Shown here: piece by piece, positions 2,481 through 63,251 of the stretch | Layout: each line of letters begins with the position of its first letter | How positions within the stretch are numbered: the first letter of the stretch is position 1 | Source of the DNA: a virus | Lineage: Duplodnaviria > Caudoviricetes | Direction: 5' to 3' (one strand) | IMG/VR virus record: IMGVR_UViG_3300021400_000134 | Length of the DNA stretch: 64,000 nucleotides | The notes under the pieces: generated by a model | Told to the model about the DNA's origin: nothing | The model's input: only the letters and a program-made list of their open reading frames with translations | Databases searched by the model: none | Program-made: the position numbers and the translations under genes

Positions 2481-5405
2481 ATGTCTGATACATTGGTAAA
2501 ATTTAAAACCGGAACTGTTGAAGACCTAGCCTCAAAAAAGGTTATTGATGGAGTAGAATATCCTTCTATTCCATTGGAATCAGGTTCAGTATATTTTGCA
2601 GTTGATACGGAAAATTCTAATGGTAAAATTGTATATGACTATCCGCTTGTGCGAACAGGTTTAAGTAATTGAAACAGTACCACTTCATATGCAAAAGACG
2701 CAGAAGTAATTTATAATGGAAAATATTACAAATCCTTTGTTGCTAATAATATTGGACACGTTCCTTATGGAGCAGCGAATAGTTATAATTACTGAAGAGA
2801 AATTGTAACTCGAGTAGTAATGGGAAGTAGCTATGGATTGAAACTTGAAAATGGAAATTTAATACTGGTAAGAGATGGTCAAAATACTTCGGTATCATTA
2901 CCAGATAATAATACTTGGCAAGCAAATACCAATTCTCAAGAAGGCTATGTTGCTTCTGGCTCTGGACAAGCTAACAAGGTTTGAAAAACAGATGGCAGTG
3001 GAAATCCTGCATGAAGAGATGATGATAACAACACATATTCAACTGCGACTAATACAAATTTAGGTTTGGTGAAACCTTGATATAGTCATACTAAAGCCAG
3101 TACTGGGCCTACTACAGGCTCAAATGCAACCGCAGTAAATGTAAATGCTTTATCTTCTACTGTAGGAAAGTATTATGCAATAGAGAGTGATAGCAATGGT
3201 AGATTATTTGTTAATGTGCCATGAGCCAATGATAATACATGGCAAGCCAATACAAATGCCCAGGCGGGTTACGTTACTTCTGGAGCTAGTCAAGTTAATA
3301 AAGTATGAAAAACCGATGCAAATGGAAACCCGGCTTGACGCGATGATGCAAATACTACATATTCAACAGCAACATCTTCTGTCCTTGGATTGACAAAATT
3401 AGGTTCAGATACGGTTCAGTCTGTTGATGCAAACGCAGTTTCATCTGAAACAGGAAAAACATATGCAATTCAATTAAATGGTTCTAGCCAAATGGTTGTT
3501 AATGTGCCTTGACAAAATGATAATACTTGAAATAAAGCAACTACGGCACAAGATGGCTATATTTCTAAACTATCTGGAAATGCAACTCAGTATTTAAATG
3601 GTAAAGGCCAATGGTCAACGCCACCTAATGATAATACAACCTATGGGTTATCTATTTCCGGTCATACGGTTTCTCTCGTTGCAGGAGGTACAACTACGTC
3701 TGTTACAGTTCCAGATAATAATGACAACACTTGACAGGCTAATACGGCAACTCAAGAAGGTTATGTATCAGCGCCTCCAACAGGAGATGATGGAAAAAAC
3801 AAAGTTTGAAAAACAGATTCTTCTGGAGTTCCTGGATGGAGAAATGATAGTAATAATACTTATAGTCTTGCTAAATACAATAATTTAGGTCTTGTAAAAC
3901 CTGCTTATAGTTCTACTGGTGCTGCTACATTAACAACAGCAGCCGCACAGAATTCTTCTACTCCAACAATTGCAGCAAAAACAACCGATGCGGGAAGATA
4001 TTATGGGGTAGAAGCAGATAAAAATGGAATTTTATTTGTTAACGTTCCATGAACAGATAATAATACATGACAGGCCGCAACCACAGGTCAAGTAGGTTAT
4101 ATTCCAAAATTATCAGGTACCGCAACACAATATTTAAATGGCGCTGGTCAATGAACAACTCCCCCAAATGATAATACTACTTATGGATTGTCAATAAGTG
4201 GACATACAGTTTCTATTGTTGCTGGAGGAACAAATACTTCGGTAACAGTACCAGATAATAACGATAATACATGACAGCTTAATACAAAAAATCAAGAAGG
4301 ATATGTAGCCTCTCCAAACGGTGGAACAAATAAAATATGAATGACAAATTCAACAGATGGAACACCAGCATGGACTGCAATTGGGGATGTACTAAAAGTT
4401 GGCGATGCAATGGTTTTTAAAGGCGTTATTGCAGGTACTGCCACATCACCGGGTGCATTTACAAAAGCCGCAAATTGCGGTGATACATATAGAGTTTCTA
4501 CTGCTGGATATGTTAATGGACAAAAAGTTGAAGCAGGAGATTTGTTTATTTGTACTGCTGACGGCACAGTTGCTGCAACTTCTTCAAATTATTCAACGGT
4601 ACAAAATACATGAACAATTGCACAAACAAATTTAGACGGTGCAGTTATTGGTCCTGCTAGTGCGTCTACAGGTAATTTCGTTCAATTTGATGGCACAAGT
4701 GGAAAATTAATTAGTGATAGTGGATATTCATCAAGTAGTTTTTCGTTAGTAGGACACAATCATGACGGTGCTTATGTCAACGTTACTGGCGATACAATGA
4801 CTGGTGTATTAAAGGCATATGCTAATCAATACACGGATGATTATACTACATGTGGTATAAATATGCAAAATTCTGATATTGTGGGATTAAACAGTATTTA
4901 TACTGCCGATAGCGCAGACGGGGCAGGAGAAGGCATTCATTTTTATAGAGATTCAACCCATGTTGATACTTTATGAATGAATGGTGGAGATATTCTATTT
5001 GTTCCCAATAGAGCTTTAGGGACAAATACGTCTAAGGCGAATTCTCAAAAAGTTGGTAGATTTACAGCTAATCCAACTTCTGGACAAGTTGTAATTACAG
5101 ATGGAACTACTGGTGGGATGAAATCTAGTGGTTATACCATTGCTAAAAGTGTTCCAAGTGATGCCAAATTTACTGATACAGACACTAAGCAAAATATTAC
5201 ATTAAAAACAACAACAAAAGGATATATAACGGCTGTTGAAACAACTCCTACTGGCACAGCAGCCGCCCAGCCGGGTATTGCCGATACTGGAGTTTATTTA
5301 ACAACAACAGCTGGTCAAATAAATGCAAAAACATATAAAGTAGATGAAGCAGTAACGCTTCAATACAATTCAACAACAAAGTCATTAGACTTTATATTCG
5401 CATAA
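2481..5405 (+). CDS. Long tail fibre protein (974 aa, TGA=Trp) with a CBM5/12-like motif and internal repeats
   Basis: ORF-track fragments 2481, 4341 and 4977 share a frame and are separated by TGA. Repeats NTWQANT.SQEGYV...NKVWKTD.SGNPAWRDD; WNSTTSYAKDAEVIYNGKYYKS motif; ends TAA. Confidence 0.8.
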
Positions 5406-5410
5406 TATAG

Positions 5411-5452
5411 AGGAGAGTTAACTTGACTCTCCTTTTACTTTTATGTTATAAT
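5411..5452 (+). terminator. Terminator hairpin overlapping a sigma-A-like promoter (TTGACT-18-TATAAT)
   Basis: AGGAGAGTTA/TGACTCTCCT stem + TTT; TTGACT 5423-5428, TG-N-TATAAT 5447-5452. Confidence 0.6.
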
Positions 5453-5472
5453 AAGAGAGAAAGGAGACTACT

Positions 5473-7842
5473 ATGGCGTTAAGAGTTTGGCTACCGCTCA
5501 ATGGTAGTCTTGAAAATAAAGGGGTTAGTGATTATGAAATTAGAAGTGCTAATATCACTATAGCAGATGATGGGAAAATAGGAAAATGCTATAGCTTTAA
5601 TGGAAGTAATTCTTATATTAATATCACTAATTTTGAAATAGGAAATAATTGGTCATATGGATGTTGAATTAATACTCCAAATTCTGATTCTAGAGGTTGA
5701 GAAATTGTTATGATATTAAATAATTCTGGGTCAGATGCAGATTCTCAATTTGCTTTTTGAGTTCATCAAAAAGAGAATCGTTTTGAAAGTTTGGCAAATA
5801 CTCAATATGTATCTACCATTCCCTATACCAATTATTATAATAATTGACATCATTTTTTTGCAACTTTTAATGGCGCTTTATTAACAACTTATATTGATGG
5901 AAATGTAGTTAATACAAAAACTATTACAGCAACGCAATATAATGCCGTGAACTTAACAATTGGTGCACGAAGTACAAATGCAACAGGAACAGCTTTTGCA
6001 AATTGATTTCAAGGAAAATTAAATGATATTCGTGTTTATGACCATTGTCTTTCCGCAAAGGAAGTAAAAGAAATTTCACAAGGTTTAGTTTTGCATTATA
6101 AATTAGATAATCCTTCTATTACAAATTATTTTGAAACAGGAAATCTTATTCCAAATTATAGGGAAATGAATTTAGGTTCGGCCAATGTTTCTACAGGAAC
6201 TTGGCGTTTAGCTGGGACAAGTAATATGACTAGAGCAAGAATTCAAATTACAGATTCTCCAATTGGAACATGTTATTGTTTTCAAAACTCTGGTATACAA
6301 ACAGCTAATGATGGTTCATGTTATGGAATAGATAGTACAACTTATTTTGAACCAAATACTGAATATAGAATTTCAATGTTTGCAAGAATAACATCTGGAA
6401 CAGAAGGATATGCAGGTTATAATATTTATAATATTTCTTCAGAACTAGGTGGTTCTCATACGAAAATTGATAAAAATTATAGAGTAACTTCTTTAAATTC
6501 AGATGGTTCTTGAACTTATTGTTGATATCATTTTAAAACAAATTCAACGGCTACTAGAAATATTTATATTGGTATTACCACTGGAGAGACTTCTGTAACT
6601 ACACAAATGTGTTTAATTAGAATTGATAAATGAAATGATGGAATGGATACTACTAAAATTGTTGATTCTTCTGGTTATGGGAATGATGGAAGTGTAATTG
6701 GAAATACTTTAATTCAAAGAAATTTCTCTAGATATAATACATCTATTTATATGAACAATACAGGTACAACAAATCATATTGAATATAATGCTTTAAATAT
6801 TAGTGGCGCATTTACAATTAGTTTTTGAGTAAAGGCAGCATTGTCAAAAAATCAAGTAATTTTTATTGATAATGGACATGGTTATGAATTTGGTATTTTA
6901 AATAATTTATTTTATACATCAACAACGACAAATAAGGGATGAGCAACGTCAAAATTTTTAACAAATAATTGAAATCATATTGTTATAAGATCCTCTGATG
7001 GAACGACAGCAGAATTATTTATTAACGGAATTCAAGAAACTTCAAGAACGGGTGCGAATAATAATTATTTACATAATAAAACCAATCCTTGATTATTAAA
7101 TAGAGGTAATAATAGTAGCTATGCAGCTGATGCTAGTTTATCTGATTTCCGTATTTATGCAACTGCCCTTTCTGCAGAAGATATATTAGATTTATATCAT
7201 ACTCCAGCAAATATAGATAATTTACAAAATATGCATACTTTTGAATTTCGAGAAAATAGTGAAAAAACTTCAATATATCAAAATGGTATTACATCTACAA
7301 CAAATGAAATACATGAATCAAATGCAGAATTATTAAATACCATGAGTATTGGAGGTTATACTCCAGCAAAAAATATAGCAAATTCTTGCACTAATTTTGG
7401 ATATGCAAATTTTGATAATTATGCTTCTTTGGGCAAAGATTTAGCAGTGCATATAGAATGTGATGTTGAATGGACCGCATTTACAGCAGATACCGGAGGA
7501 ACTTTTAGAGGAGTTTGGTTTCAAGGAGCAAATTATGAAATTGCTTCAAGTTCTTTTAAATGAGCTGGTACGAATTATATATGTAGTGCTTTAAATTCAG
7601 CCTTTTCATTACAAACCATATCTACAATAACAACAGCTGGAAAACACCATTATAATATTACGACAACAATTCCTGCTAGTTGATTTGCAACATATAGTAG
7701 ATCTAATTTAGGTTGAAGATGTGATTATTCTGATGGAACAGGTCATATTGATATAAAAAATTTAAAAATAACTCCATTGCAATACTACAATGCTAAAATT
7801 GGTGAAGATTTTATTTCAGCAAATAATTTTATAGAAAAATAA
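5473..7842 (+). CDS. LamG/concanavalin A-like lectin-domain tail protein (789 aa, TGA=Trp)
   Basis: Fragments 5473, 6091, 6643 and 7231 are in one frame. LamG motifs NN(TGA)HHFFATFNG..TYIDG, FQGKLNDIRVYDHCLS and SLSDFRIYATALS; ends TAA. Confidence 0.8.
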
Positions 7843-7854
7843 GGAGGTGCCAGG

Positions 7855-8478
7855 ATGGCGCAATTAAATACATATACGGTATATTGTCATACCAATTTAA
7901 TAAATGGAAAAAAATATGTTGGTATAACAAAAAATGTGCCAGAAATCCGTTGAGGATATAATGGCATCAACTATAAAGGTTGTACTTTATTTTGAAAAGC
8001 GATAGAGAAATATGGTTGAAATAATTTTTCACATGATATTTTAGAAACTGGCTTATCAGAAAAAGAAGCTATAGAAAAAGAACGATATTATATAAAATTA
8101 TGAGACACAATGAAAACTAATGGATATAATTTGACTTCTGGCGGAGAAATTAATAAAGAAATTGACGAAGAATATAGACAGCGTTTAAGAGATTCTCATT
8201 TAGGTATAAAGTATTCTGAAACTACAAGAAAGAACATGTCTAAAGCAAAAATGGGTCATCCTGGTTATAATTGTAAACCTGTTTGAATGTGTGATAAAAT
8301 AACACATGAAAAAATTAAATATTTTAAAAATTCTATTGAAGCAGAAAAATTTTTAAATAAAGGCAACACGCGTGCTCATATTGGGCACGTATGCCAAGGA
8401 AAAAGACCTTCCGCTTATGGATATTACTGAATGTTTGCGGATAAGGCAGAAGGAGGTGTTGACCTATCGCACAATTAA
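7855..8478 (+). mobile_element. Free-standing GIY-YIG homing endonuclease with NUMOD3/NUMOD1-like C-terminus (207 aa; six Trp, all TGA)
   Basis: YTVYCHTNLINGKKYVGIT, AIEKYG(W)NNF, GYNLTSGG, TRKNMSKAKMG, SAYGYY(W)MF. Absent from the ORF track because of TGA. Confidence 0.85.
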
Positions 8479-9266
8479 AAGATAGCTTAATTACTGGTGA
8501 TTTGCGAGTCACTGGTACGATATATGGAGACGCCAATTTGAGTTCACTTAATGCGAGCGGAACTGGATTGGGGTCTAATGGACAAGTTTTAAAATCAACA
8601 GGAACTGGATTGGCTTGATTGACATTGGGAAGCTTGGCTTCTAAAAGTACAATTTCTAATCATTCTGTCACAATACCAACAGGAGAGACTAGTAGAACAG
8701 CGGATGTTGCAGTAAATACAACAACGGTTAACTCAATTACTGGTGTTGGTACATTGCCAAGTTTAACTGTTACGGCAACTGATGTAGTAACAGGCGGTAC
8801 TACTACTGCTATTCCAAATATTTCAAAGAAAACTGTTGTAACGGGTGTTACTAAAAAGACAGTTGTAACTGGAGGATCTACAACAGCAGTTCCTAACATT
8901 TCAAAGAAAACTGTTGTAACATCAGCAACTGCAGCAAAAGCTACCTATAGTTCTGGAGTATTGACAATTTCCGATGGAAGTGTGACGACCGGTGATTCAG
9001 TAACAGTAGGAACTGCAATTAATGCTTATACAAGTTTAACAACTGGAGATAGTGTTACTGTAACAACTGGTGATTCAGTAACAGTTGGTACAGCTATTAA
9101 TGCTTATACTGCTTTAACTACTTCAAGCATCGGTTCCGCTAGTAATTGAAGTGCTGGTACATTACCAACTAAAGGTTCTAATACAACTGTTGCTACTGGA
9201 ATTAAAACACAGCCTACATTTACAGTTACAACGCAAACAACAACATTAACACATACAATAAGTTAA
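8466..9266 (+). CDS. Thr-rich tail fibre/needle protein, probable ATC start
   Basis: GGAGG at 8452 then ATC GCA CAA TTA AAA GAT (AQLKDSLITGDLRVTGTIYG); in frame with ORF 8619 through TGA 8616 and 9147; ends TAA. Confidence 0.7.
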
Positions 9267-9278
9267 GGAGGTAATTAA

Positions 9279-10736
9279 ATGGCAAATGGTTTAATAGGAA
9301 AAATAACTGCCGGAGGTGGTACACATTTAATTGCCTCGACAGCTTACTTTACGTGTGCAACGGCTAAGGCTACTGCGGCAAAAGTGGCAGCTGCTGCAGA
9401 TACAAATTTAGATAATATAACTTTAATGACAGGCTTAACTATTTATGTAAAATTTACAAATCATAATGAAGTAGCAAATCCAACATTGGCTTTATATAAA
9501 TCAGATGGTACGACTAATTTAGTTGCTGCTAAACCTATTATGAGATATGGAACAACAACAGCTTATCAAAGTGCTGCTGGTTCTTGGCGCGATGGGGCAG
9601 TAGTAGCTTTTACTTATGATGGAACTAATTGAGTTGAGCACTCGAGTATTGATGATAATAGTAATGATACAGGATATTATGTTAGACATATCTATACAAA
9701 TATTAAAGCTGGTTCTGTTGGTATTTTCCCTTATACAATAATTATGCAAAGAAATGACGGACGTTGAGATTCTATTGTAACAAGTAGTTCTACTGGTACG
9801 TCAAAAGCGTGTAATACAAATGGATTCGTATTAGGTCAAGTCATGCTAATGTATGCGAATAAAACTTATGCCGCAGATGCTAATGTTGATACATATAATG
9901 TATGACAAATGCATAGCGGACTAGTTGATCATAGATATAGTTTTAATACCGCTAATAATGCAACAAGTGGTACTGCCGCTAGAAAACCTATATATTTAGT
10001 TGGGACTGTTACTAATGGATTATTCTATTTAGATACAACTAAATGATGAGCTACTGCTTTACCGACAAGTGCTGATGGGAAAGTCTATATTTATATAGGA
10101 GAATCTTATGATTATTATAGACTTACGTTTACTGGGTATCATCCAATATATCATTATACAAATGGAGCTTTAAGACTATACGGGGGAGACGCCTCAACGG
10201 TTAATGGACAAGTATTAGGTACATTAGCAACTAAATCCAGCATTGCTAATCATTCATATACGCCAGCTGGAAGTGTCTCCGTTTCTACTAATGCGACAAC
10301 CAATAAAACAGCTACGGTTAGCCCAGCGTCTTCTGGAACGGCTACATATACACCAGCTGGAACAATTGCTGTAAATACTGCAGGTTCTACTGTTGCTGCA
10401 GATGATATTACCGCATGAACAACTAATACGCCAACAGCGGTTACTAAAAAAACTGTTGTAACTGGTACGAGCGCAACTACAATTAGCGTATCTTCTGAAG
10501 TTTTAACAATACCTGCTTCCGTTATAACGTCTGCAACTACTGGTGATAGCGTTAGTGTAACAGCAGGTACAGCTGCATCATTATCATACACTGCACGTAC
10601 AGTTAAATCTGGAGATGCCAGTTATAAATTTACTGGTACTGGTGTGCGTTTGGTTACTGGTAATATTGCGGTTCCTAATACATATACCGCATCATTTACC
10701 GGCACAGCAGCAACATTGACTCATACAGTTTCATAA
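9279..10736 (+). CDS. Tail fibre protein (485 aa, TGA=Trp, including tandem TGA-TGA at 10044-10049)
   Basis: GGAGG RBS; single frame to TAA; C-terminal LGTLATKSSIANHS...TLTHTVS module paralogous to the preceding gene. Confidence 0.75.
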
Positions 10737-10746
10737 AATTTTTTTC

Positions 10747-10775
10747 TTGACACATCAAGAAAAATTTCGTATAAT
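10747..10775 (+). promoter_or_regulatory. Perfect sigma-70/sigma-A consensus promoter overlapped by an inverted repeat
   Basis: TTGACA-17 nt-TATAAT; TTTTTCTTGA-CACA-TCAAGAAAAA palindrome over the -35 box. Confidence 0.8.
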
Positions 10776-10780
10776 ACATA

Positions 10781-10948
10781 TAGGTTAAGATGGTAAGTCG
10801 ATACCAGAATGAAAAGTTTAAAAAATGGATTGGGAATATTTAGCTGGAAAATCCTTATCATCTTAATCTATTTTAAAAAATCGCCTCTTATTCCAAAAAA
10901 TAGGAGGGAGGGGGTAAGTTTTAAATCTCTTACCTCCCATATTTTTTT
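10781..10948 (+). ncRNA. Candidate small structured RNA
   Basis: Starts at the predicted +1. A 17-bp stem (10781-10797 with 10854-10870, two G-U pairs) is followed by a terminator-like hairpin (GGGGGTAAG/CTTACCTCC + T-run). Confidence 0.45.
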
Positions 10949-10963
10949 ATAGGAGGATACAAC

Positions 10964-11917
10964 ATGGCGGATATAAAACAGATAAAGGTAGGCACTACTA
11001 CCTATGATATAAAAGATGGTACCGCTAGAGAAGCATTATCTGAAAAAGTGTCTAAAGCTGGTGACACCATGACAGGAAACTTATGAATAAGTAATGGTTT
11101 AACCAAAGGAACAAACCCAAGTTCTGATACCACTCGCTATGTATCTTTTGTTGATGGTGAAGGAATCGCTGTAGATAATAGAACAGGTGCGATTATTAAC
11201 CAGATAAAAACAGATGGAACATCTTTTACTGGAATTTATGCCTATGATTTTACTGCTGATTCTACTCAAGCCCAAGTTTTAAGAACATTTAAACCGCAAG
11301 GCGGTAATGGATATTCAAATGTTAGTAGCGCTGATGTTTCTAATGCGGTTTTAAGAAATATTGGTTATGGTACAGGCTCTCCTAGTGGTGGCAGTGATGG
11401 AGATGTTTATATTCAATATAATACAACTTCCACACATCCATTTTTAGATTTAGTTTATCCAGTGGGTGCAATTTATTTATCTACTGTTAATACAAATCCT
11501 GGGACTTTGTTTGGAGGAACTTGAAGTCAAATTAAAGACAGGTTTTTGCTTGCGGCAGGTGATACTTATGCTGCTGGAGGTACTGGTGGTGCTGCAACAG
11601 TAACGTTAAGTAAAGCTAATATGCCGGCTCATACTCACAGTAGAGGCACCATGGAAATCAAAGGTAGTTTTCGTATTAATGATGATGGCAATAATGCTGG
11701 TCTTGATGCTGCTAGTTCTGGAAGCGGAGCCATTAGCGCGGTAAGCGGAACAGGAACAGGTTCAGATGTAGATGGAACTGGATGAGCAGTAACGAAAGGT
11801 TTTGATTTTCAAGCTTCTAAGAATTGAAGCGGGGCAACATCTTCAGAAGGCTCTGGTACTGCGCATGAAAATATGCCACCATATCTTACTGTTTATGTTT
11901 GGCAAAGGACTGCATAA
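10964..11917 (+). CDS. Tail/baseplate fibre protein with gp10-C/tail-collar-like domain (TGA=Trp)
   Basis: MADIKQIKVGTTTYDIKD...YPVGAIYLSTVNTNPGTLFGGT(W)SQIKDRFLLAAG...HENMPPYLTVYVWQRTA; TAA. Confidence 0.75.
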
Positions 11918-11930
11918 GGAGTAATATAAT

Positions 11931-13001
11931 ATGGCTGTTTATGTAGGAAGTAGTTGAGTAGAATTAGATAGATGGTCTGATGCTACTGGTTATGGTAATA
12001 ATGCTGAATGAAGACTAATGGCATATTCCAGACAAGGCGATGCAACAAGCAATAGTTCAACAGTTTATTTTAAATGACAGGTAAGTTGTTCTACCGGCTC
12101 TGTTTATAATTATGATGCTCATTATTCGAGTGTTTCTGGTACTGGCCCAATGGGGGACGGTCATAATGCAACACAAACCTGAGCTTTTGGAAGTGTACCT
12201 GATACGAGTTGGCATGAAGTTACTGGCGATTCTTCTGATATGTATTGGTCAGGATTGAAACATAGGGCAGATGGAACTTGTTCTCTTACTCTAAATGCTT
12301 CTGGTACAAGGTGGAATAATTCTAGTTTTAGTACAAATATTAGTATTACTTTACCGACAATTAGTAGAACCTATACTGTTTCATACAATGCTAATGGAGG
12401 AACAGGCGCCCCAAATAGTCAAACAAAAACGCAAAATGTTACTTTAACATTATCAAGTACAAAACCGACGAGAACCGGTTATACTTTTTCTAAATGAAAT
12501 ACCAAAGCAGACGGTTCTGGCACTAACTATAATCCAGGAGCATCTTACACTACTAATGCTGCACTTACGCTATACGCGCAATGAACAATTAATACCTATA
12601 CAATTACTATTAACCCTAATGGCGGTTCATTTACTTCAAGCAAAAATAGCACAGCGCAATCAACGGCTCAATCTTATACAGTAAATTATGGCAGTAGTAT
12701 TACAAATATTACTGCAAGTCGTTCTGGTTATATGCCAGCTGGATGATTTACTGAGTCTTCTGGTGGAACAAAAGTTATAAACAATGGTGGAAGTTTAAAT
12801 TCAATTTCTTCATCTCGTACTATATATGCACAATGGACAAAAGAAGACCCCCCACCAGACCCAATTTATGATGTTTATACAAAAATTGGCGGAACATGGG
12901 TGCCAGGAGTGATTTGAATTAAAGTTAACGATGTTTGGTATAGAGGCTTAGAAACAACTCTAAAAGTTAGTGGTTCTTGAAGAAAAATGAAAGCGCAATA
13001 G
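11931..13001 (+). CDS. Virion protein with InlB B-repeat / Listeria-Bacteroides repeat domains (TGA=Trp)
   Basis: YTVSYNANGGTGAP...PTRTGYTFSK(W)NTKADGSG...LTLYAQ(W); conserved repeat Trp positions are TGA; ends TAG. Confidence 0.8.
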
Positions 13002-13017
13002 AGAAAGGTGGTAGAAT

Positions 13018-13674
13018 ATGGCAGCGGTTAAACAAATTAAAATTGGAAACACAAATTATGATTTAAAAGCTCTCAATGCTGCTAATCAAAACCAAAGTGG
13101 TGCAGTAGTAAGAGATATACAATATGGCACTGCAGCTCCAACAGGCGGTTCTGCGGGACAGATGTATTTACAATATGTTAATACAGATACTGAAAATTTA
13201 TATTTATACGCAGAAGATACCGCTGCAGATACTACAGGAGTGGCTGATAAATATTACAGTAAAAGTGAAGTTGATGCTATGATTGCTAATCTTACTAATA
13301 AAACAACCTGACATAACTATGCTTGAGGAGGCAATACATCTTCAGGTCAAACTGTAACTATTACATGTTCTGGTCCTGGCTTTATTATAATTTCAGCTTT
13401 TATTAGAGCTAATAATAGTACAGATAACTATGGTCTTTTAGCTACCTCTATATCTAAATCAGATAATAATGGTTCTTCTTGGAACGAAATTTCTAGAGAA
13501 GAACATAGAAAACATGGATCAGGTTATTCTATAGCTCCTGCTGCTTTTGCTTCAACAGGAACTTCTACTTCAAGTGCTACAAGATTTAAAATTGAATTTA
13601 ATAGGTCTTATGAGGGAACTCATTATTGAAGAATAGAGGTTCTTTCTGTTGGATGTACTGTAACTAAATTATAA
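13018..13674 (+). CDS. Putative receptor-binding/tail fibre protein, paralog of 15246-15902 (TGA=Trp)
   Basis: MAAVKQIKIGNTNYDLKALNAANQNQS N-terminus shared with 15246; reads through TGA to TAA. Confidence 0.7.
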
Positions 13675-13688
13675 GAGGATAATCGATT

Positions 13689-14105
13689 ATGGCACAAAAC
13701 AAGTATATTAAGCAAAATGGTGAAGTAATATACCCTATTACGAAAACTGAAAATGTATTAAATAAAGCTGGATTGGATTGTTTTGGTTGATGTAATGGCA
13801 TAATGTGATGTTACGCAACTAGAAGTTCTACCAGTACGGTAGATTGAACTTTAAATGCAAATTTTGGTTCTAATGGAATAAAGATTAATACTTTAAAGAT
13901 GGATGGAACTGTGCAAAGGGTTACTTTTACGTCATCTTTAGCTTCAACAAACTATGGGGTTTGAGTTTCAGCAGAAGTTGGTGGAACAGCCAGCGAAATT
14001 CTTGGCGTATATGGTAGAACTACAAGTGGTTTTGCCATCGATTGTGCGAATTATAATGGAGCTGCAACTCAACCAGTCCAAATAAGTATTTTAATTATAT
14101 ATTAA
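13689..14105 (+). CDS. Small tail-associated protein (TGA=Trp), N-terminus paralogous to 15908
   Basis: GAGG RBS; MAQNKYIKQNGEVIYP vs MAQIQYLKKNGELIYP; not in ORF track. Confidence 0.65.
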
Positions 14106-14125
14106 TTAAAGAAAGGTGATAGAAT

Positions 14126-14215
14126 ATGGCGGCTGTAAAACAGATAAAAATAGGTAATATTAATTATAATATGCTGCTATATTTAACAGTTTACATGTGA
14201 AGAAGAACGGCATAA
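14126..14215 (+). pseudogene. 29-aa chimeric remnant of an internally deleted tail gene
   Basis: MAAVKQIKIGNINY fused to NMLLYLTVYM(W)RRTA*, i.e. the first and last ~14 residues of neighbouring paralogs; RBS retained. Confidence 0.7.
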
Positions 14216-14231
14216 CTAAAGGAGGTAAGAC

Positions 14232-15236
14232 ATGGCTACACTTGGAACTTCATGAACTAATATAGGAAGTCAAAGTTTCTCTGTTGGCGGTTATGGTCAT
14301 ACCGCCTACATATATGCAAAATTAAACCATCAATCTGGATTAACCTCTTATATTGATTTAGAATTAAGAATTAATTATAGTGTTTGATTACAATCTTATG
14401 ATACAGACTTTTATTTAACCGGTTATGGATGATTAGGCTATGCCTATAGAGAATGAATGAGTGCTGGAACATATACGATTATGTCTTCTAGCATAACGGT
14501 AGGACATGACTCAAATGGAAATGCATCCTTTGCAGCTCAAGGTGGTTATGAATACAAAGGAATGGGTGTCAGCGCAACCACATTCTGAAGTAGTACCTAT
14601 AGTCTGCCTAAAATTACTGTAAATTATACAGTAACTTATAATGCGAACGGTGGTTCTGGCCAACCTGGAAACCAGACCAAAGTTCATGGAACAAATTTGA
14701 CATTATCTTCAACTAAACCTAGTTGAAGTGGACATACATTTAAACATTGAAATACTGCGGCGAATGGTTCTGGTACATCTTATAATCCAGGAGGAACATA
14801 TTCTACAAATGCGAATGTTACATTATATGCACAATGAGATAATGAAACATATACAATTACATACAATGCAAATGGAGGAGATGGCGCGCCAGATACTTCA
14901 ACTAAAGTTTATGGTAGTCCAATGAGATTATCTACAATAACCCCAACGAGAGCAGGGTATACGTTTTTTAGATGAAATACTGCTTCTGATGGAACTGGAC
15001 AAGATTTTAGTCCAGGTGGATTATTTGGAATAGATGCCACTACAACATTATATGCTATTTGAATACCGAATGGTACTGCGCCGACTGGTTTGTTTGATTG
15101 CTACACTGCAATCAAAGGAGCTGGACAATATACTCCTTGCTTTATATGGATTAAAGTAGGAAGTACGTGATATTTTGTTAAAAAAACTGCGGTAAATGTC
15201 GGCGGGACATGGAAAACTGTAAGTAACAAAGGATAG
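14232..15236 (+). CDS. Second InlB B-repeat virion protein (TGA=Trp), paralog of 11931-13001
   Basis: GGAGG RBS; YTVTYNANGGSGQP...PS(W)SGHTFKH(W)NTAANGSG...TLYAQ(W); ends TAG. Confidence 0.75.
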
Positions 15237-15245
15237 GAGGAGAAT

Positions 15246-15902
15246 ATGGCAGCTGTAAAACAGATTAAGATAGGTAATACAAACTACGATTTAAAAGCAT
15301 TGAATGCGGCTAATCAAAATCAATCAAATGCTGTTGTAAGAGATGTCCAGTATGGAACAGCTACTCCTACTGGCGGAAGTGCTGGTCAAATATATTTACA
15401 ATATACTAATACAGATACCACCAATCCCTATGTTTATGCTGAGGATACTCCTGGAACTGAAGTTAATGTCAGTGATAAATATTACAGTAAAACTGAGGTT
15501 GATAATAAATTTGCTTGAAAAAAATTTGGTTCACATAGTGGAGCAGATAATTGAGATATAACTTCTTGTTGAAACCAATGTCAAGAATTATATATTGTTG
15601 TTAGTAAATACTTTAGAGGTTCTAACACTTCAGCGAATGAAGTCATAGAATTACAATGTCACGTATTAAAACAGCAGGTTGAAGAAGATTGGACTAGTTC
15701 ATACAATACTGGAAAAATTGTATTTATTCCAGCTGGAAATAGATATAATAATAATCAAGGAAATAGCAGTATTTGAAATGCCCTTTTTAGATTACATAAT
15801 GGTAATGGTAATGTTTATCTTCAGTTAAACGAATTATTTTGTGTATCACTCGCTTCAACAAATCAGAATGGCTCAGGGTATTATATATTATATTGAAGGT
15901 AA
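15246..15902 (+). CDS. Putative receptor-binding/tail fibre protein, paralog of 13018 (TGA=Trp)
   Basis: Conserved ~90-aa N-terminus, unrelated C-terminus; reads through TGA to TAA 15900-15902. Confidence 0.7.
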
Positions 15903-15907
15903 TTATT

Positions 15908-16384
15908 ATGGCACAAATACAATATTTAAAAAAGAATGGGGAATTAATATATCCTCATATTTCAGTTGACCAAATATACCCAGTGGGGAGTATTTATATG
16001 AGCATAAATAACGCGAATCCTGAAGACCTTTTTGGTGGAACATGGGAACAGATCCAGGGAAGATTTTTACTTGCAGCTGGTGGTGGTTATAATGCCGGTG
16101 CAACTGGAGGAGAAGCTAATCATACGTTAACCTCTAACGAAATGCCAAGTCATTATCACTCTTTTCAATGGTCTGCTTCTAATTCTGAATATGATGCTGG
16201 AGTTAGTGGTAGTACAAATCCTTGAAATTTTGGTAATTTAACAGATGAAGGACATTCTGTTATGGTACACTGAACATATAATGGTAGTGAAAGGCAGGGT
16301 AATACCAGCAGCACCGGCGGAGGCGCAGCACATAACAATATGCCACCATATTTAGTAGTATATGTTTGAAAAAGAACAGCTTAA
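15908..16384 (+). CDS. gp10-C/tail-collar-like domain protein (TGA=Trp)
   Basis: YPVGSIYMSINNANPEDLFGGTWEQIQGRFLLAAG...HNNMPPYLVVYV(W)KRTA; TAA. Confidence 0.75.
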
Positions 16385-16593
16385 TTAATAAGATCGAGGA
16401 AATACTAGATGAGCTTTTGTCTTTAAAATTGCTGATGGATCAGTGGATGCACATATTGATTAAAATAAAATATAATAGTAGATTTAATTTGGACAGGTTT
16501 ATATAATTTTGCCTGCCCATTTTTTATTTATAATGTACCGAGGGAAGGTACTCAATAGAAAAGTTTTACTAATAATGGAAAGGAAGTAAAGTT

Positions 16594-16974
16594 ATGATGA
16601 ATTATTCAGGATACCCTGCTCCAACGTATCCAACTTATGGAGCAATGGGTCAACAACAACTTTATACCCAGAGACAAGAAGTGGTTAGGGTCAATGGGCG
16701 AAATGGTGCAAATGCTTATCAAATGGCGCCAAATAGTAGTATACTACTTTTAGATGAGACTGCACCAATTATTTGGTTAAAAACAACAGACGGAGCATCA
16801 TATCCAACAGTAACTGGATATACGATTACTCCAATTGAAACTCAAGCAACAACTACGGCGAGTGTAGATTATTCAGCTTTAGAAGAAAGAATATCAAAAT
16901 TAGAAGAGGCATTCAATGCAAGGAAATCCGATGCTTCAGATTCTAAACCAATCAAGACCATTAATAAACAATAA
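16594..16974 (+). CDS. Hypothetical protein (conserved Firmicutes phage cluster, gene 1)
   Basis: ORF with RBS; VNGRNGANAYQMAPNSSILLLDET..IWLKTTDG. Confidence 0.6.
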   Translation: MMNYSGYPAPTYPTYGAMGQQQLYTQRQEVVRVNGRNGANAYQMAPNSSILLLDETAPIIWLKTTDGASYPTVTGYTITPIETQATTTASVDYSALEERISKLEEAFNARKSDASDSKPIKTINKQ

Positions 16975-17155
16975 TATGGTCTCAATGATAAAAAACTCGC
17001 CTAATCCTCAAGTTTTGCTAAATAATTTATTGGCGCAAAATCCTAAAGTATCTGGATTAATAAATCAATATGGCGGTGATGCAAGAACCGCTTTTTATGC
17101 GCTTGCGCAACAAAAGGGGGTAGACCCTAATTCAATATTAGACATGTTAAAATAA
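16916..17155 (+). CDS. Hypothetical Gln/Asn-rich protein (cluster gene 2)
   Basis: GAGG RBS; NPMLQ...AFYALAQQKGVDP. Confidence 0.6.
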   Translation: MQGNPMLQILNQSRPLINNNMVSMIKNSPNPQVLLNNLLAQNPKVSGLINQYGGDARTAFYALAQQKGVDPNSILDMLK

Positions 17156-17209
17156 GTCAACCTAATTAGTAAGACTTAACTATTGAATTACTAATTAGGA
17201 GGATTTAAA

Positions 17210-17875
17210 ATGGAAAATGGAAGTTTATCAGCTAGTGATGTTGCTTTACTCAGTGATCGCAATGGTTATGGTGACATGTGGGGCGGCAATTCCATGATGT
17301 GGATTTTTGCTTTATTGATTCTTGCTGGTGGCGGCTTTAATGGTTGGGGTAACAACGGCTTCGCTAACGCAATCGGTTATGAAAACTTGGCAACACAATC
17401 ACAAGTAGATCGTGGTTTTGATACCCAGAATATGATGGCAAATCAAAGAGAAACTCTTGCTGCTGTCAATGCTGGAACCGCACAAGCAGTAGCCGCAACT
17501 AATCAGACATTCCATGACACAGTTAATGCTTTAAGTGATAAATATAGTGAACTTGCTAGAGATATCAGTGGCTTAGCTGTTGGTCAGGCTAATTTGTTAG
17601 CAAAAGAAAATGAATGTTGCTGCCAGACACTTCGCGCAATTGATGGTGTAAATTATGCGAATGCTTTAAATACAGCTGCAATTAATGAAAACACAACTGC
17701 GCAGACTCAGAAAATCCTAGATGCTATTACTGGTAATCGTATGGCTGACATGCAAAATCAAATTAACCAATTACAGCTTCAGCAAGCTGTTGCTGGTGTA
17801 GTTCGCTACCCAAGTGCTAGCACTTATTACGCAGGAACAAATCCGTTCTGCGCTTGCGGTGGAGCAACACTTTAA
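17210..17875 (+). CDS. Hypothetical membrane-anchored coiled-coil protein with CCC motif (cluster gene 3)
   Basis: Strong RBS; Gly-rich hydrophobic segment, ECCCQT, C-terminal PFCACG. Confidence 0.65.
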   Translation: MENGSLSASDVALLSDRNGYGDMWGGNSMMWIFALLILAGGGFNGWGNNGFANAIGYENLATQSQVDRGFDTQNMMANQRETLAAVNAGTAQAVAATNQTFHDTVNALSDKYSELARDISGLAVGQANLLAKENECCCQTLRAIDGVNYANALNTAAINENTTAQTQKILDAITGNRMADMQNQINQLQLQQAVAGVVRYPSASTYYAGTNPFCACGGATL

Positions 17876-17885
17876 TATGTAAATG

Positions 17886-17919
17886 AAGGGCGACTATTTA
17901 AGTTGCCCTTTTTATTTTT
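17886..17919 (+). terminator. Rho-independent terminator
   Basis: AAGGGCGACT/AGTTGCCCTT stem + T-run. Confidence 0.8.
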
Positions 17920-17953
17920 AATCAAAAGGGAAAAGTTTAGGAGGAATGATTAA

Positions 17954-18364
17954 ATGTTAGAAGTATATTCTAAAAATGTAACAGTTGCGGAAAATGGAAT
18001 AATTCCACTAACTACCGTAGCTTTAGTTAAAGGAACAAGCACTCAATTATTAGGCACATCTACAATTCAGTTTAACAAATGCGGAATTTATGAAGTTACA
18101 GTATCTGGTAGTGTAACTGGAAGTGCGGCCGGAGAGATTGTAATCCAGCTTGAGAAAAATGGTGTTGTCCAGCCTCAAGCCGTATCATTAGCAACTGCCG
18201 CAGATGCAACTTCAATAATTCCATTTAGTTTTACAACTTTAATTCAAGTTCCAGATAGTAATAACATCAATTGCCCTTGTTCAACAACAACAACCATTTA
18301 TTTAAGAAATGCGGGAATTGAAGATACATATAATACAATTACTGTAACCGCAGTCCGCATTTAA
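17954..18364 (+). CDS. Beta-sandwich (BclA-C/C1q-like) protein (cluster gene 4)
   Basis: GIYEVTVSG...FSFTTLIQV pattern; family call tentative. Confidence 0.5.
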   Translation: MLEVYSKNVTVAENGIIPLTTVALVKGTSTQLLGTSTIQFNKCGIYEVTVSGSVTGSAAGEIVIQLEKNGVVQPQAVSLATAADATSIIPFSFTTLIQVPDSNNINCPCSTTTTIYLRNAGIEDTYNTITVTAVRI

Positions 18365-18378
18365 TAAAGAGGTGCAAT

Positions 18379-18939
18379 ATGACACTTGAAGAGATTTATT
18401 CTGAATTAAGTGCCCATATGATAAAGGGTCTAATGGTTCATGACCAAATGGCTAAATATTACTGTTTTTTAAGTCTAAAAGGCTATGCAAAATGTCATAC
18501 CTATCATTATCTTTGTGAAAATAAAGATTATATGGAATTAAATCATTATTATCACAAACATCATAATAGACTAATAAAAGAAAAGCCTATATCAGACCCA
18601 AAATTGATTCCAAATGCATGATATGCATATCAAAGGGTAGATGTTGATGCAACAACCAAGAGGAATGCTGTTAAAACCGGCATGGAGAAATGAATAGAAT
18701 GAGAAACAGAAACTTTAACATTATATTCTAAGATGTATAAAGAATTATTTGCTCTTGGAGAAATTGCGGATGCTGAATATGTTGCTTGTTTAATAAAAGA
18801 GGTAGATGAAGAATTAGCGCAAGCAAATTCTTTATATATAAAAAAGAAAACCTGTGATTTCGATATTAGCGCAATCATGGGCGATCAAGAAGAAAAGTTT
18901 AAAGAATACTATGAAAAAATAGAAGAAATTTGGAGGTAA
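18379..18939 (+). CDS. Ferritin-like four-helix protein (186 aa, three TGA=Trp)
   Basis: Fragments 18379 and 18733 are in frame; His/Glu-rich helices; K(W)IE(W)ETETL. Confidence 0.6.
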
Positions 18940-18943
18940 AACT

Positions 18944-20875
18944 ATGGCTTTAAAAGGGATTGATATCAGCAATTGGCAAAACGGAATTAACTTATCTACT
19001 GTCAAGGCTGATTTCGTAATCATCAAATCTTCTGAAGGTATTGGATGGACAGACCCAGCTTTTAAACAATTATTCGCTGCTGCGAAAAAAACAAGTAAAA
19101 AATTGGGGGTTTATCATTTCGCGCGACCAACCGCTGATAACGATCCAATTAAAGAAGCTGAGAGTTTTGTTAACATTATTAAGCCAGAAGGTGTTATTGG
19201 TAAAGCTTTACTTGTTCTTGACTGGGAGGCTGAAAATCAGCATAACACAGCTTGGGCAAAATCTTGGTTAGATAAAGTATATGCGCTAACTGGTGTAAAA
19301 CCTATGATTTACATGAGTGAAAGTGTGGTTAATGCTTATAACTGGGATGCAGTTGCTAACGCTGGATATGAGCTCTGAGTCGCCAAGTATTGAGACAACG
19401 CACCTGATTATAATTATGATATGTCTAATGCTGGCAATAAGCCATCAATTAGTCATTGGAAAAATTATAAAATGTGGCAATGGACTTCTACTGGAAGATT
19501 AGATGGTTATGATGGCAATTTAGATTGCAACGAGTTCTATGGAACAGCTGCGGATTGGGATAAATTAGTAAATGCCGCAGGAAAGAAAGAAGAACCAAAA
19601 AAGGAAGAAACAACTGAAACAACAACAATTGAAATTCCAGGATATTCAACAAATGTAGTCATGAGTCCAACAGATTGGTTCAATATGACTTATGGTCATA
19701 GCTATGATATTGATGGCTACTATGGTGCCCAGTGCTGGGATTACTTTGCATATTTCGTACAATATACTGGCATTGGTGTAAGCACATACTGTGCATTAAC
19801 TCACTATGTTGGTGACTTATGGACATTAAAAGACCAGTATGGTTATTCAGAACATTTTGAATATATTACAAATCCTAATGCATTACAAAATGGTGACTGG
19901 TTAATCTGGCCTCAGGGCTCTTCTAACCCATTATCACATGTCGCAATGTATTGGAATGGCCAGATTTTAGGCCAGAACCAGGGTGGAGCAAGAATTGTTA
20001 CTTTGGCTAACGCATATTTCGACATTGCTGGTGCATTAAGATGGAAAGGTTGGAATGGCGGAGGCGGTTCTCCAGCAGAGAAAATCAATCTTAAGAATTA
20101 CACTGATGCGGAATTAGCTCGCATGGTTATTGCTGGCAGATTCGGAAATGGCGATACAAGAAAGAAACTTCTTGGAACTCGTTATGATGGCGTTCAGGAT
20201 ATGGTTAACCGCATCTTAAATGGTGAAGCAGTAGATCTAAAAGACAATGAAACAGTCGCACGCGAAGTCATCCAGGGCCTATGGGGCAATGGAGACGACC
20301 GTTATAACAGATTAACTGCTGCTGGATATAACTATGATGCAGTTCAGAATCTTGTAAATCAAATCTTAAATGGCGGCGGAGGTTCTTCAAAGAAATCTAT
20401 TGATGAAATTGCTCAAGAAGTTCTTGCCGGCATCTGAGGTAATGGTGATGACCGTTATAACGCATTAACAAATGCTGGTTATGACTACAACGCAGTTCAG
20501 GCTCGTGTAAATGAATTATTAGGATATGGCACAGCCAAAGATTCTAATGAAACAGTCGCTGACCAAGTAATCGCAGGATTATGAGGAAATGGCGATGACC
20601 GCTACAATAGATTGACTGCTGCTGGATATGATTACAACACAATCCAGGCAATTGTTAATCAGAAACTTGGATATGGCGGTGGTGCAAGCATTGGTGTTGG
20701 TTCTAATATTCGCATTGGCTACAACGCTACTGACTTAAACAGCGGAACATTCTATGCTCCATTTGTTTATCAGAATGTATACCAGGTATTTGAAATCAGC
20801 GGCCGCAGAGTAGTATTTGGCACTAATGGAACAGTAATTGGTGCTACCGATATTGGTAATGTATCATTAGCATAA
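18944..20875 (+). CDS. Modular endolysin: GH25 muramidase + CHAP-like domain + CW_7 repeats (643 aa; four TGA=Trp)
   Basis: GIDISNWQ, GVYHFA, LVLDWE, L(W)VAKY(W), WQWTS..G.LD.N; AQCWDY...SHVAMY; repeats IQGLWGNGDDR / LAGI(W)GNGDDR / IAGL(W)GNGDDR. Confidence 0.9.
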
Positions 20876-20888: not shown

Positions 20889-21218
20889 ATGGACAGTTTT
20901 TTCTCACTAATCGCTATTGCAACACTGATTGAAGCCCTTATTTCTTATGGTAAAACTATTGTCAATAAAGGCACAATCCAATGGCAAATTATTTTAGCGT
21001 TTATTATTGGAATTGTCTTTTGCTACGACACTGGTTTAAACTTCTTTGCAATGTTGGGCTTAAGCGAACAGTGGCCTATTATTGGGACATTAGCGACTGC
21101 TGTTACATTGTCTCGTGGTTCAAATTATATGTTTGAGTTTTATAATCAACTAACCACTTGGCGCAAACAAGCAACAGAACAAGCAAATAATAATAACAAC
21201 GGGGTTAGTTCTATTTAG
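20889..21218 (+). CDS. Putative holin
   Basis: Small multi-TM protein directly after the endolysin; LSRGSNYM motif. Confidence 0.65.
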   Translation: MDSFFSLIAIATLIEALISYGKTIVNKGTIQWQIILAFIIGIVFCYDTGLNFFAMLGLSEQWPIIGTLATAVTLSRGSNYMFEFYNQLTTWRKQATEQANNNNNGVSSI

Positions 21219-21236
21219 AACTAACCTCTTTTTTTG
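21201..21236 (+). terminator. Rho-independent terminator ending the lysis unit
   Basis: GGGGTTAGTTCTA/TAGAACTAACCTC stem + T-run. Confidence 0.8.
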
Positions 21237-21237
21237 T

Positions 21238-21266
21238 TTGACTTTTCTGGAAAAATTTTATATAAT
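21238..21266 (+). promoter_or_regulatory. Sigma-A-type promoter driving the hsp20-tRNA unit
   Basis: TTGACT-17-TATAAT. Confidence 0.75.
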
Positions 21267-21481: not shown

Positions 21482-21853
21482 ATGATGTTTGATTATGATT
21501 CTTTTTTCAATTGGGATAAACCCGCTTACACTTTTAGTCGTTCAGTACATGATATGCATCCCTATTCTATTAAAACATTGGATGACAGGGTAGTATTGGT
21601 TCATAATATTGTCGGTGTTAAAGAAGACGATATTAAGGTTGATATTGTTAATAAAGATGGTAGAGACCAGCTTGTTATCGAGGGTGTAACTCATAACGAT
21701 TTGCTGAACTATGATTACAAAATTAATTCAAGATTCGATATTAAAGCAGATATGTTTAAGAATGTAACTTATTCTGTTGAAGATGGTTTGCTATATATCA
21801 ATCTATTTAAGAAAGAACCAGAAGCAACTAAATTAATAGTTACGAAAGCCTAG
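21482..21853 (+). CDS. Small heat-shock protein (Hsp20/alpha-crystallin domain)
   Basis: IVGVKEDDIKVDI...LVIEG...YSVEDGLLYINL pattern; 123 aa. Confidence 0.7.
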   Translation: MMFDYDSFFNWDKPAYTFSRSVHDMHPYSIKTLDDRVVLVHNIVGVKEDDIKVDIVNKDGRDQLVIEGVTHNDLLNYDYKINSRFDIKADMFKNVTYSVEDGLLYINLFKKEPEATKLIVTKA

Positions 21854-21887
21854 AGAATTTTTTAAAGAAGTTCTCTACTCTATTTAT

Positions 21888-22165
21888 AGGGGTATGGTGT
21901 AATTGGGAACACTACGGTCTTCAACCGGGAGATGTTAATCCTTAAATTGGTGCGTTGCGGTAGGGATGCCGCAAATGAAGGTGATGATATCGGTGAACCC
22001 TAAACGAAAGCATGGGAATACCGAGGGAACGAAAGGCCCGTAGAGACTAGATAATCACCCGGCTAGAACAGTCGAAGATATAGTCCAGACTACAAACAGA
22101 AATGGTGGCGAAAGTCATAGTAGTACGCAACACCGTCTATTCAGGTTCGAACCCTGATACCCCTG
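21888..22165 (+). tRNA. Opal (UGA)-decoding tRNA-Trp, anticodon UCA, interrupted by a group I intron (exons 21888-21921 and 22128-22165)
   Basis: Acceptor AGGGGTA/TACCCCT + G73; D-arm GTGT/ACAC; anticodon stem ACGGT/ACCGT; spliced loop CT-TCA-AC; T-arm TCAGG-TTCGAAC-CCTGA; 4-nt variable loop; CCA not encoded. Confidence 0.9.
21922..22127 (+). ncRNA. Group I self-splicing intron (206 nt, no ORF) inserted between U34 and C35
   Basis: 5' exon ends in U paired U.G in P1 (GUCUU/GAGAU); P3 GGTGAT/ATCACC; P4 TCGGT/ACCGA; core GTAGAGACTA and AAGATATAGTCC; GNRA-capped P2 and P9; terminal G. Confidence 0.9.
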
Positions 22166-22190
22166 CTTAAGCAAAATAAGGAGTGTACAA

Positions 22191-22583
22191 ATGTTTAATC
22201 TAGAAGATATGTCAATAGATGAATTAGCAAATTTGCAAAATCAATGTTCTAGTATTTTAAGTCAAAAAATAAAAGAAGAAAAAGATAATGAATTACATAG
22301 TATTAAAGAAAAATATGAAGGTAAGTATATTATTTTACATGGCACCCTTTATCATATAAAAGAAATTAATAACCGTTATAATTATGATTGCTCAAAAGCA
22401 GAATGTTCACATTCTCATTGGAGAGGTACTGATACGTATCTTATAAAAATTGGCGAAGGTGCCGATTTGTTAAAGATTGATACAGAAGGTAATTATCCAA
22501 TAGAACAAGGTGTCCTTACAACTGCGGAAGAAGCAGAAGATTTTTTAAACGAAATGTTTAAAGAAATTAAGGAAAAATTCTAG
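22191..22583 (+). CDS. Hypothetical protein
   Basis: 130-aa ORF with AAGGAG RBS. Confidence 0.6.
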   Translation: MFNLEDMSIDELANLQNQCSSILSQKIKEEKDNELHSIKEKYEGKYIILHGTLYHIKEINNRYNYDCSKAECSHSHWRGTDTYLIKIGEGADLLKIDTEGNYPIEQGVLTTAEEAEDFLNEMFKEIKEKF

Positions 22584-23005: not shown

Positions 23006-23050
23006 AAAAAATAAGGAGAATGATTAATTTTCATTCTCCTTATTTTTTTT
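23004..23050. terminator. Bidirectional terminator at the strand convergence
   Basis: Perfect 20-bp inverted repeat AAAAAAAATAAGGAGAATGA / TCATTCTCCTTATTTTTTTT. Confidence 0.85.
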
Positions 23051-23626: not shown

Positions 23627-23681
23627 AATTCATCCCCCTCCTGTTGTCTTATAAATTAAAAAAGGTATTAGATACCTTTTT

Positions 23682-34443: not shown

Positions 34444-34516
34444 TTTCTCAACACCTCTTTTATATATTATAACATAAAAAAGTCTATTTTGCAAGACTTC
34501 TCTATTTTAACTGGCT

Positions 34517-55619: not shown

Positions 55620-55632
55620 TCAGCATATAAAG

Positions 55633-58217: not shown

Positions 58218-58267
58218 ACAAAAACACCTCCACACTTTTTTATTTTTTCTTTTTCTTTATATAATAA

Positions 58268-61220: not shown

Positions 61221-61234
61221 TATCTATTTCCTCC

Positions 61235-62707: not shown

Positions 62708-62724
62708 TTTTTTATCTTTCCTTT

Positions 62725-63240: not shown

Positions 63241-63251
63241 ATGCTACCCTC

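Follow-up and report, generated by a model that had tools for sequence, protein, structure and literature searches.

Phages that read the stop codon TGA as tryptophan (Trp; genetic code 4) were described by Borges et al. from gut and rumen samples, especially in the Agate and Jade clades; TGA has been lost as a stop in these phages, their G+C content is low, and a homing endonuclease favours TGA (bioRxiv 10.1101/2021.08.26.457843). TGA suppressor tRNAs were present in only 35% of the code 4 genomes, the guess being that unusual tRNAs had been missed, and the Jade phages carry a standard-coded 'code change operon' adjoining the lysis cassette (bioRxiv 10.1101/2021.08.26.457843). Here we analyse a 64,000-nucleotide stretch of a Caudoviricetes phage (IMG/VR record IMGVR_UViG_3300021400_000134; the window), which has 34% G+C and covers roughly one third of the genome of a large lytic phage whose relatives measure 138-196 kb. 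We consider it very probable that this phage recodes TGA to Trp in its late genes while infecting a host of standard code, using its own intron-split tRNA with the anticodon UCA, tRNA(UCA). The recoding itself is already published, and the window is a correct rediscovery in a new genome, one more case of a well-described phenomenon; the less ordinary detail is that the TGA-reading tRNA is split by a group I intron and hidden from standard tRNA finders.

In-frame TGA codons and gene function

A comparison of codes, which the initial annotation had suggested for the region 2481-20875, puts coding density at 42.7% under the standard bacterial code (table 11); the value rises to 94.2% if TGA is sense, but only to 53% if TAG is and to 69% if TAA is. 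In the minus-strand block 24400-60900 the choice of code makes little difference, coding density being ~91% with each. With TGA as sense, 2481-20875 resolves into 18 tightly packed genes, 14 of them with TGA. The open reading frames (ORFs) are, as first described and across the entire block, single frames broken only by TGA, with a TAA or TAG stop, a GGAGG-type ribosome-binding site upstream and that of the next gene adjoining; the tandem TGA-TGA is indeed in frame. The fibre frame holds 19 TGA and no TAA or TAG in 974 codons, a pattern far beyond chance at this base composition. That the TGAs are real stops, and the late genes pseudogenes or products of sequence errors, would account for the fragmentation of the block under table 11. 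It is nonetheless extremely improbable, because the frames are broken only by TGA, never by TAA, TAG or a frameshift, Pfam domains span the TGAs, and the same pattern recurs in independent assemblies of sister phages.

The distribution of TGA is as marked as its presence. Twenty late-type genes contain 113 in-frame TGA codons in total, and 25 replication genes contain none against 115 TGG (118 by a second count); comparing the 14 plus-strand late genes (94 TGA, 46 TGG) with the replication genes (0 and 118) gives a Fisher p of 1.5e-35. TGA use tracks gene function and not position, since an amidase-like gene with TGA sits among TGA-free early genes (Table 1). Each of the 66 genes has a TAA or TAG stop, with TGA possible instead in only two (1535-2305 and 45636-46277), and TGA is absent from the four genes between 20889 and 23005. 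The initial annotation had confined the recoding to 2481-20875; it is real there, and that range proved too narrow, as minus-strand genes at 23024-24191, 55071-55640 and 60924-63758 are recoded as well. Code 4, likewise, fits the late genes only.

These counts bear on whether the host itself uses code 4, the phage merely matching it. The window has no gene with a clear TGA stop, and UGA-to-Trp bacteria are reported from several phyla (bioRxiv 10.64898/2025.12.01.691617). A code 4 host is nevertheless unlikely, because avoidance of TGA in the replication genes, when late genes prefer TGA by ~2:1, would have no purpose unless TGA terminated translation in the early phase of infection. Moreover, the phage has its own UCA tRNA, its endolysin of glycoside hydrolase family 25 (GH25), CHAP and CW_7 domains implies a peptidoglycan wall and so excludes the wall-less Mollicutes, and standard-code hosts were predicted for these phage clades (bioRxiv 10.1101/2021.08.26.457843). 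From the TGA avoidance in early genes and the wall-directed endolysin, we infer a standard-code host, probably a walled member of the Bacillota.

Sister phages can differ sharply in how far one and the same gene is recoded: the endolysin orthologue of the sister phage G001 (locus L165), 64% identical, has 11 in-frame TGA codons, ten of which face TGG in the window. The base 3' of the codon is A after 49% of TGA and 36% of TGG, and T after 13% and 22% (p = 0.04); selection for a leaky termination context at TGA was dropped as an explanation, this p value being too weak.

The amino acid at TGA

The initial annotation had assigned Trp from the proteins' own repeats, and every codon position that it quoted was found correct on re-reading. 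In the fibre, the repeat NT-W-QAN uses TGG at 2916 and TGA at 3732, and at the P(A/G)-W position copies 1-2 have TGA and copies 3-4 have TGG; in the endolysin, the Trp of the CW_7 motif G(L/I)WGNGDDR is written TGG at 20282 and TGA at both 20435 and 20582. The paralogous protein ends YVWQRTA (gene 10964-11917) and YVwKRTA (gene 15908-16384) likewise carry TGG and TGA at the same place.

Alignment with homologues, envisaged there for standard-code ones, finds Trp enriched in the TGA columns (52-82%). Endolysin TGA codons 145, 498 and 547 face Trp in 6/6, 10/12 and 8/9 homologue segments from cultured standard-code phages (of Erysipelothrix, Gardnerella, Streptococcus, Arthrobacter and others); the fourth TGA column, 150, is variable among homologues. 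For gene 14232, across 120 homologues that are mostly bacterial InlB-repeat proteins, the TGA columns are 82% Trp and 0.8% Gly, against a background of 0.2% and 11.7%, and four repeat columns are Trp in 477 of 479 residues. For gene 5473, with 150 cluster representatives, Trp accounts for 52% of residues in TGA columns, 65% in TGG columns and 0.6% of the background. Two of the homologues count as independent because they translate under table 11: one of gene 14232, on a 1.06-Mb bacterial contig, and one of gene 5473 (P0159), which has Trp at six of nine aligned TGA columns. Some homologues of gene 5473, P0121 among them, are not independent, because they were themselves called with TGA as Trp. 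Between the window and the sister phages G001 and G004, TGG and TGA are swapped at 22 aligned orthologous sites, ten of them in the endolysin.

Other meanings of TGA can be weighed against the same columns. Code 25 phages, in which TGA is glycine, do exist (bioRxiv 10.1101/2021.08.26.457843), and ARAGORN labels any tca anticodon 'SeC', two points in favour of glycine, selenocysteine or cysteine at TGA. Glycine occupies 0.8-3% of the TGA columns of genes 14232 and 5473, under its 8-12% background, and never faces TGA among the orthologous swaps. A selenocysteine tRNA would measure ~95 nt, with an 8-bp acceptor stem and a long variable arm, and would serve few sites with a selenocysteine insertion sequence. 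This reading was considered and ruled out, because selenoproteins could not account for as many as 113 sites and the decoder is an ordinary tRNA, 72 nt long, whose acceptor stem has 7 bp and whose variable loop has 4 nt. The chance that TGA encodes any of these three residues is thus minimal. Of the initial claim, the assignment to Trp and the exclusion of glycine and selenocysteine stand, and the reading of TGA as Trp in the late genes is well supported by these alignments.

A tRNA(UCA) split by a group I intron

A candidate decoder lies at 21888-22165 on the plus strand, where it was recognised by eye: ACGGUCUU ends a 34-nt 5' half, CAACACCGU starts a 38-nt 3' half, and 206 nt lie between them. 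Joined, the halves give a cloverleaf with the anticodon loop CUUCAAC, the discriminator base G73 and no encoded CCA, and every helix of the window copy pairs. The acceptor stem starts A1-U72, G2-C71, G3-C70, as the stem of Escherichia coli tRNA-Trp presumably does. C35 and A36 are kept along with G73, the three together being tRNA-Trp identity elements (PMC2965240). Charging by the host tryptophanyl-tRNA synthetase (TrpRS) is to be expected, because only position 34 differs from the tRNA-Trp anticodon and G73 is retained. A similarity search with the tRNA matched six phage records, in which just one annotated feature was a tRNA-Trp; the same search against E. coli genomes gave no match. Relatives carry an intronless tRNA(UCA) with the loop CUUCAAC at the same syntenic site, and in G002 and G004 a solitary tRNA with the anticodon UCA lies ~7 kb past the polymerase gene.

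Default ARAGORN and Rfam searches found no tRNA in the window. With its intron option, ARAGORN reports a tRNA spanning 21888-22166 and an intron of 206 nt whose boundary falls one base earlier, giving the anticodon GCA; the element might then be a tRNA-Cys(GCA), or a dead relic, and another decoder might read TGA from the two thirds or so of the genome outside the window, given that relatives have 22-30 tRNA genes each. We regard this as improbable. The GCA reading ends the intron in C, whereas the UCA reading gives the U...G arrangement in all 14 homologues; the intronless homologues, the discriminator G73 and the intact helices agree with the UCA reading, and the tRNA clusters of G001 and G002 contain no other UCA tRNA. 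A tRNA-like candidate suppressor in these two genomes turned out to be an initiator tRNA-fMet, with a C1xA72 mismatch, a GGG/CCC anticodon stem and the anticodon CAT. This initiator-type tRNA is missed by default ARAGORN in both (L124:13633-13705 in G001, L126:4924-4996 in G002), and the G001 cluster also includes a transfer-messenger RNA gene (L124:7275-7626).

The 206-nt insertion falls between U34 and C35, so that the UCA anticodon exists only after its removal. A search with the conserved core motif found 33 more IMG/VR loci. Fourteen distinct short versions were aligned, and in all 14 the junctions read CUU/C...G/CAAC (slashes marking the splice sites), with U at position -1 and the intron ending in G. 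This is the rule for tRNA group I introns (bioRxiv 10.1101/2020.01.27.920355), and CUU/...G/ is the classical position of the tRNA-Leu(UAA) intron, 'Leu.3Ug' in Williams 2020. Covariation was tested on a hand-drawn structure comprising the cloverleaf and P1-P9 with a P3/P7 pseudoknot. The paired fraction of cells in the alignment is 95.9%, compared with 82% for shuffles and ~43% for slid partners, and compensatory changes occur in 39 of 72 pairs, a count reached by none of 500 shuffles. Such changes are found in each of P2, P3, P5, P7, P8, P9 and P9a; P4 and P6 are invariant. RNAalifold independently recovered the four tRNA arms and P2-P6, P8 and P9. An initial P1 pairing, GUCUU/GAGAU, was unconserved in relatives and was replaced by a P1 with U34·G63. 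The intron is predicted to splice itself.

Several observations weigh against a suppressor-based recoding of the late genes as set out here. The Rfam tRNA model does not match the tRNA at an expect value (E) up to 10, and neither does Intron_gpI on 21700-22400, a model whose seed sequences include none from bacteria (Williams 2020). P1 and P4 are invariant and give no covariation signal, and RNAalifold draws a different P1. The body of the tRNA does not single out the relatives' tRNA-Trp(CCA) (67% identity) over their tRNA-Gln (72%). No release factor or TrpRS gene was found within the window, and scans of its remaining ORFs with Pfam and PHROGs found no translation factors. Finally, recoding is uneven: the three genes at 16594-18364 and the holin have no TGA, nor does the upstream gene of unknown function at 8-1513; in its neighbour of unknown function at 1535-2326 the only TGA is terminal and may be its stop; and TGA makes up only 17% of Trp codons in the endolysin (4/23).

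Relatives with introns of ~600 nt carry an ORF for a PD-(D/E)XK endonuclease (PF11645) inside, which argues that the intron family is mobile; the window intron has no ORF. Where close relatives had sufficient flanking sequence, six loci (L009, L014, L042, L043, L049, L063) have the intron in the syntenic tRNA(UCA), and another four (L011, L012, L013, L015) have the tRNA gene uninterrupted. The intron is therefore not needed for recoding, as phages with split and with intact tRNAs both have late-gene TGA, and the simplest reading is that it is a tolerated mobile (homing) element and not a required switch. We hold it doubtful that the splicing rate of the suppressor pre-tRNA sets the timing or strength with which TGA is read as Trp, and so times the synthesis of tail and lysis proteins; such splicing would require guanosine and magnesium and be limited in rate by folding.

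Two further features of these tRNAs were observed. Directly 5' of the suppressor tRNA, at 21870-21887, stands (A)GTTCTCTAC, then a T-rich run with TAT at its end, and the same stretch is present in all relatives checked (L009, L014, L043, L063, L127, L128); a similar one precedes the initiator tRNA in G001 and G002. The element GTTCTCTAC is not enriched in the window (8 matches, 9 expected). Relatives also possess a second class of UCA suppressor tRNA with a long extra arm, which the window tRNA lacks (L130:6521-6823, L131:8627-9329, L145:4418-5114, L152:5826-6489 and L127:1413-1507). In most of them the loop of this arm, CUCCAAA or CUCCAAC, duplicates the tRNA-Trp anticodon loop, CCA included; L152 and the copy of G002 (L127) retain only the CCA. 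The arm might serve as a decoy for the synthetase.

Proposed mechanism, gene map and known systems

Taken together, a model for the expression of this genome emerges. Replication genes, written without TGA, would be readable under the standard code; in most tail, virion, lysis and DNA-resolution genes, where TGA is the commoner Trp codon, translation would depend on the phage tRNA(UCA), charged by host TrpRS once the intron had spliced itself out and created the UCA anticodon. The tRNA unit, itself free of TGA, could be expressed before the code changes. The decoder would then compete with release factor 2, and recoding would delay the synthesis of late proteins.

The unit lies shortly past the endolysin, in the order promoter, TGA-free ORF, tRNA, TGA-free ORF, holin and terminator-like hairpin. 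A first hairpin closes the lysis genes ahead of the promoter-like site, and the ribosome-binding site of the second ORF begins ~13 nt past the tRNA. A phage sigma-70-type factor or a host sigma factor are candidate readers of the promoter-like site. Coordinates are collected in Table 1.

Table 1. Features of the window.
Feature	Position	Strand	In-frame TGA / TGG	Remarks
Repeat-rich fibre-like protein	2481-5405	+	19 / 5	974 aa; stop TAA; PHROG 21765, function unknown
Virion protein	5473-7842	+	15 / 5	789 aa; two Laminin_G_3 domains
GIY-YIG homing endonuclease	7855-8478	+	6 / 0	free-standing
Function-unknown gene	8502-9266	+	2 TGA	
Function-unknown gene	9279-10736	+	6 TGA	including tandem TGA-TGA at 10044-10049
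Tail/baseplate protein	10964-11917	+	4 / 1	Gp10_C domain; end YVWQRTA (TGG)
Flg_new repeat protein	11931-13001	+	9 TGA	InlB-type
Two small ORFs	within 11931-15236	+	3 and 4 TGA	
Flg_new repeat protein	14232-15236	+	11 TGA	InlB-type
Gene	15246-15902	+	5 TGA	
Gp10_C paralogue	15908-16384	+	3 TGA	end YVwKRTA (TGA)
Three genes inside late block	16594-18364	+	0 / 4 (total)	
186-aa ORF	18379-18939	+	3 / 1	directly 5' of endolysin; no family match
Endolysin	18944-20875	+	4 / 19	GH25 muramidase, CHAP-like domain, 4 CW_7 repeats
Terminator-like hairpin	21201-21228	+		consensus match only; putative function
Sigma-70-like promoter	21238-21266	+		TTGACT-17-TATAAT, 11/12 matches; consensus match only; putative function
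ORF, weak Hsp20-like match	21482-21853	+	0 TGA	first gene of putative tRNA operon
Suppressor tRNA exon 1	21888-21921	+		positions 1-34; end ...CUU
Group I intron	21922-22127	+		206 nt; no ORF; U-1 5' of splice site, last base G
Suppressor tRNA exon 2	22128-22165	+		positions 35-73; start CAAC; G73; no encoded CCA
ORF	22191-22583	+	0 TGA	
Holin homologue	22592-23005	+	0 / 0	PHROG 13712; zero Trp codons
Terminator-like hairpin	23004-23050	+		putative function
Late-type gene	23024-23698	-	3 TGA	
Holliday junction resolvase	23682-24191	-	3 TGA	RuvC-like
Replication and nucleotide-metabolism block	24419-60187	-	0 TGA	except two embedded genes
DNA polymerase	30556-34494	-		1312 aa
Embedded endonuclease ORF	45576-46568	-	2 TGA	
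Embedded amidase-like gene	55071-55640	-	4 TGA	
Sigma-70-type factor	57189-58235	-	0 TGA	complete (regions 1.2, 2, 3, 4)
Second late-type block	60924-63758	-	with TGA	
Gene	60924-61220	-	1 TGA	
Tail-fibre-like gene	61235-62707	-	6 / 0	
Gene	63252-63758	-	2 TGA	

The minus-strand replication block encodes dUTPase, NrdG, NrdD, guanylate kinase, helicases, a RecJ-like exonuclease, primase, a Sak4-like protein, an NAD-dependent ligase, topoisomerase II and RNase H. GIY-YIG homing-endonuclease genes number three in the window: beside the free-standing late gene, one without TGA lies between NrdG and NrdD (26951-27625, minus strand), and in the embedded ORF the GIY-YIG domain is confined to the C-terminal end of a 330-aa frame, which may be degenerate or fused. 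With the DNA polymerase as query, 78 related loci were found in IMG/VR contigs, many of 130-200 kb, the closest at 79-86% identity; a nucleotide search with 20 kb of the window found no match among cultured phages.

Standard gene callers fragment the late genes of such phages, and standard tRNA finders report no suppressor. Public proteins P0147 (99% identical, residues 560-696) and P0207 (87%, residues 232-346) match gene 5473-7842 and end exactly at its TGA codons 697 and 347, which shows that existing gene calls of near-identical phages are truncated. Intron-blind searches may have produced, as an artefact, some of the 'recoded phages without a suppressor tRNA' of published surveys; the lesson for annotation is to call genes under both codes and to allow long anticodon-loop introns in tRNA searches.

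The study of Borges et al. appeared in Nature Microbiology in 2022. The window shares with the code 4 phages described there a low G+C content, a TGA stop that is almost unused and a homing endonuclease that prefers TGA; its standard-coded decoder unit adjoins the lysis genes, as in the Jade phages, and its relatives, at 138-196 kb, and its presumed host, with a Bacillota-type cell wall, match as well. Unlike those phages, it contains no gene for release factor 1 or TrpRS, and since the window has no terminase, its resemblance to the Agate and Jade clades is one of gene content only. Where the survey guessed at missed tRNAs, in this phage the missed tRNA can be named, and a group I intron is what hid it.

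A different set of stop-recoded phages, the Lak megaphages (Devoto et al. 2019, PMC6784885), also has introns in its tRNAs, patchily distributed among close genomes. Those introns, called 'enigmatic', lie in tRNA-Tyr and tRNA-Thr and not in a suppressor, they have no group I assignment, and the codon recoded in Lak phages is TAG, whereas here it is TGA (PMC6784885). Our literature search found no paper in which a suppressor tRNA of a phage carries a group I intron. The window intron otherwise resembles the group I introns of bacterial tRNAs in its insertion at 34/35 after CUU, with U at -1 and G last, in its compact core of ~200 nt with P3-P9 and the P3/P7 pseudoknot, in the anticodon stem that joins the exons, and in the PD-(D/E)XK endonuclease ORF (PF11645) of its longer relatives. 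It departs from them in being missed by Rfam Intron_gpI, with splicing predicted from sequence, and in its location, a phage opal-suppressor tRNA in place of a cellular tRNA-Leu, -Arg, -fMet or -Ile.

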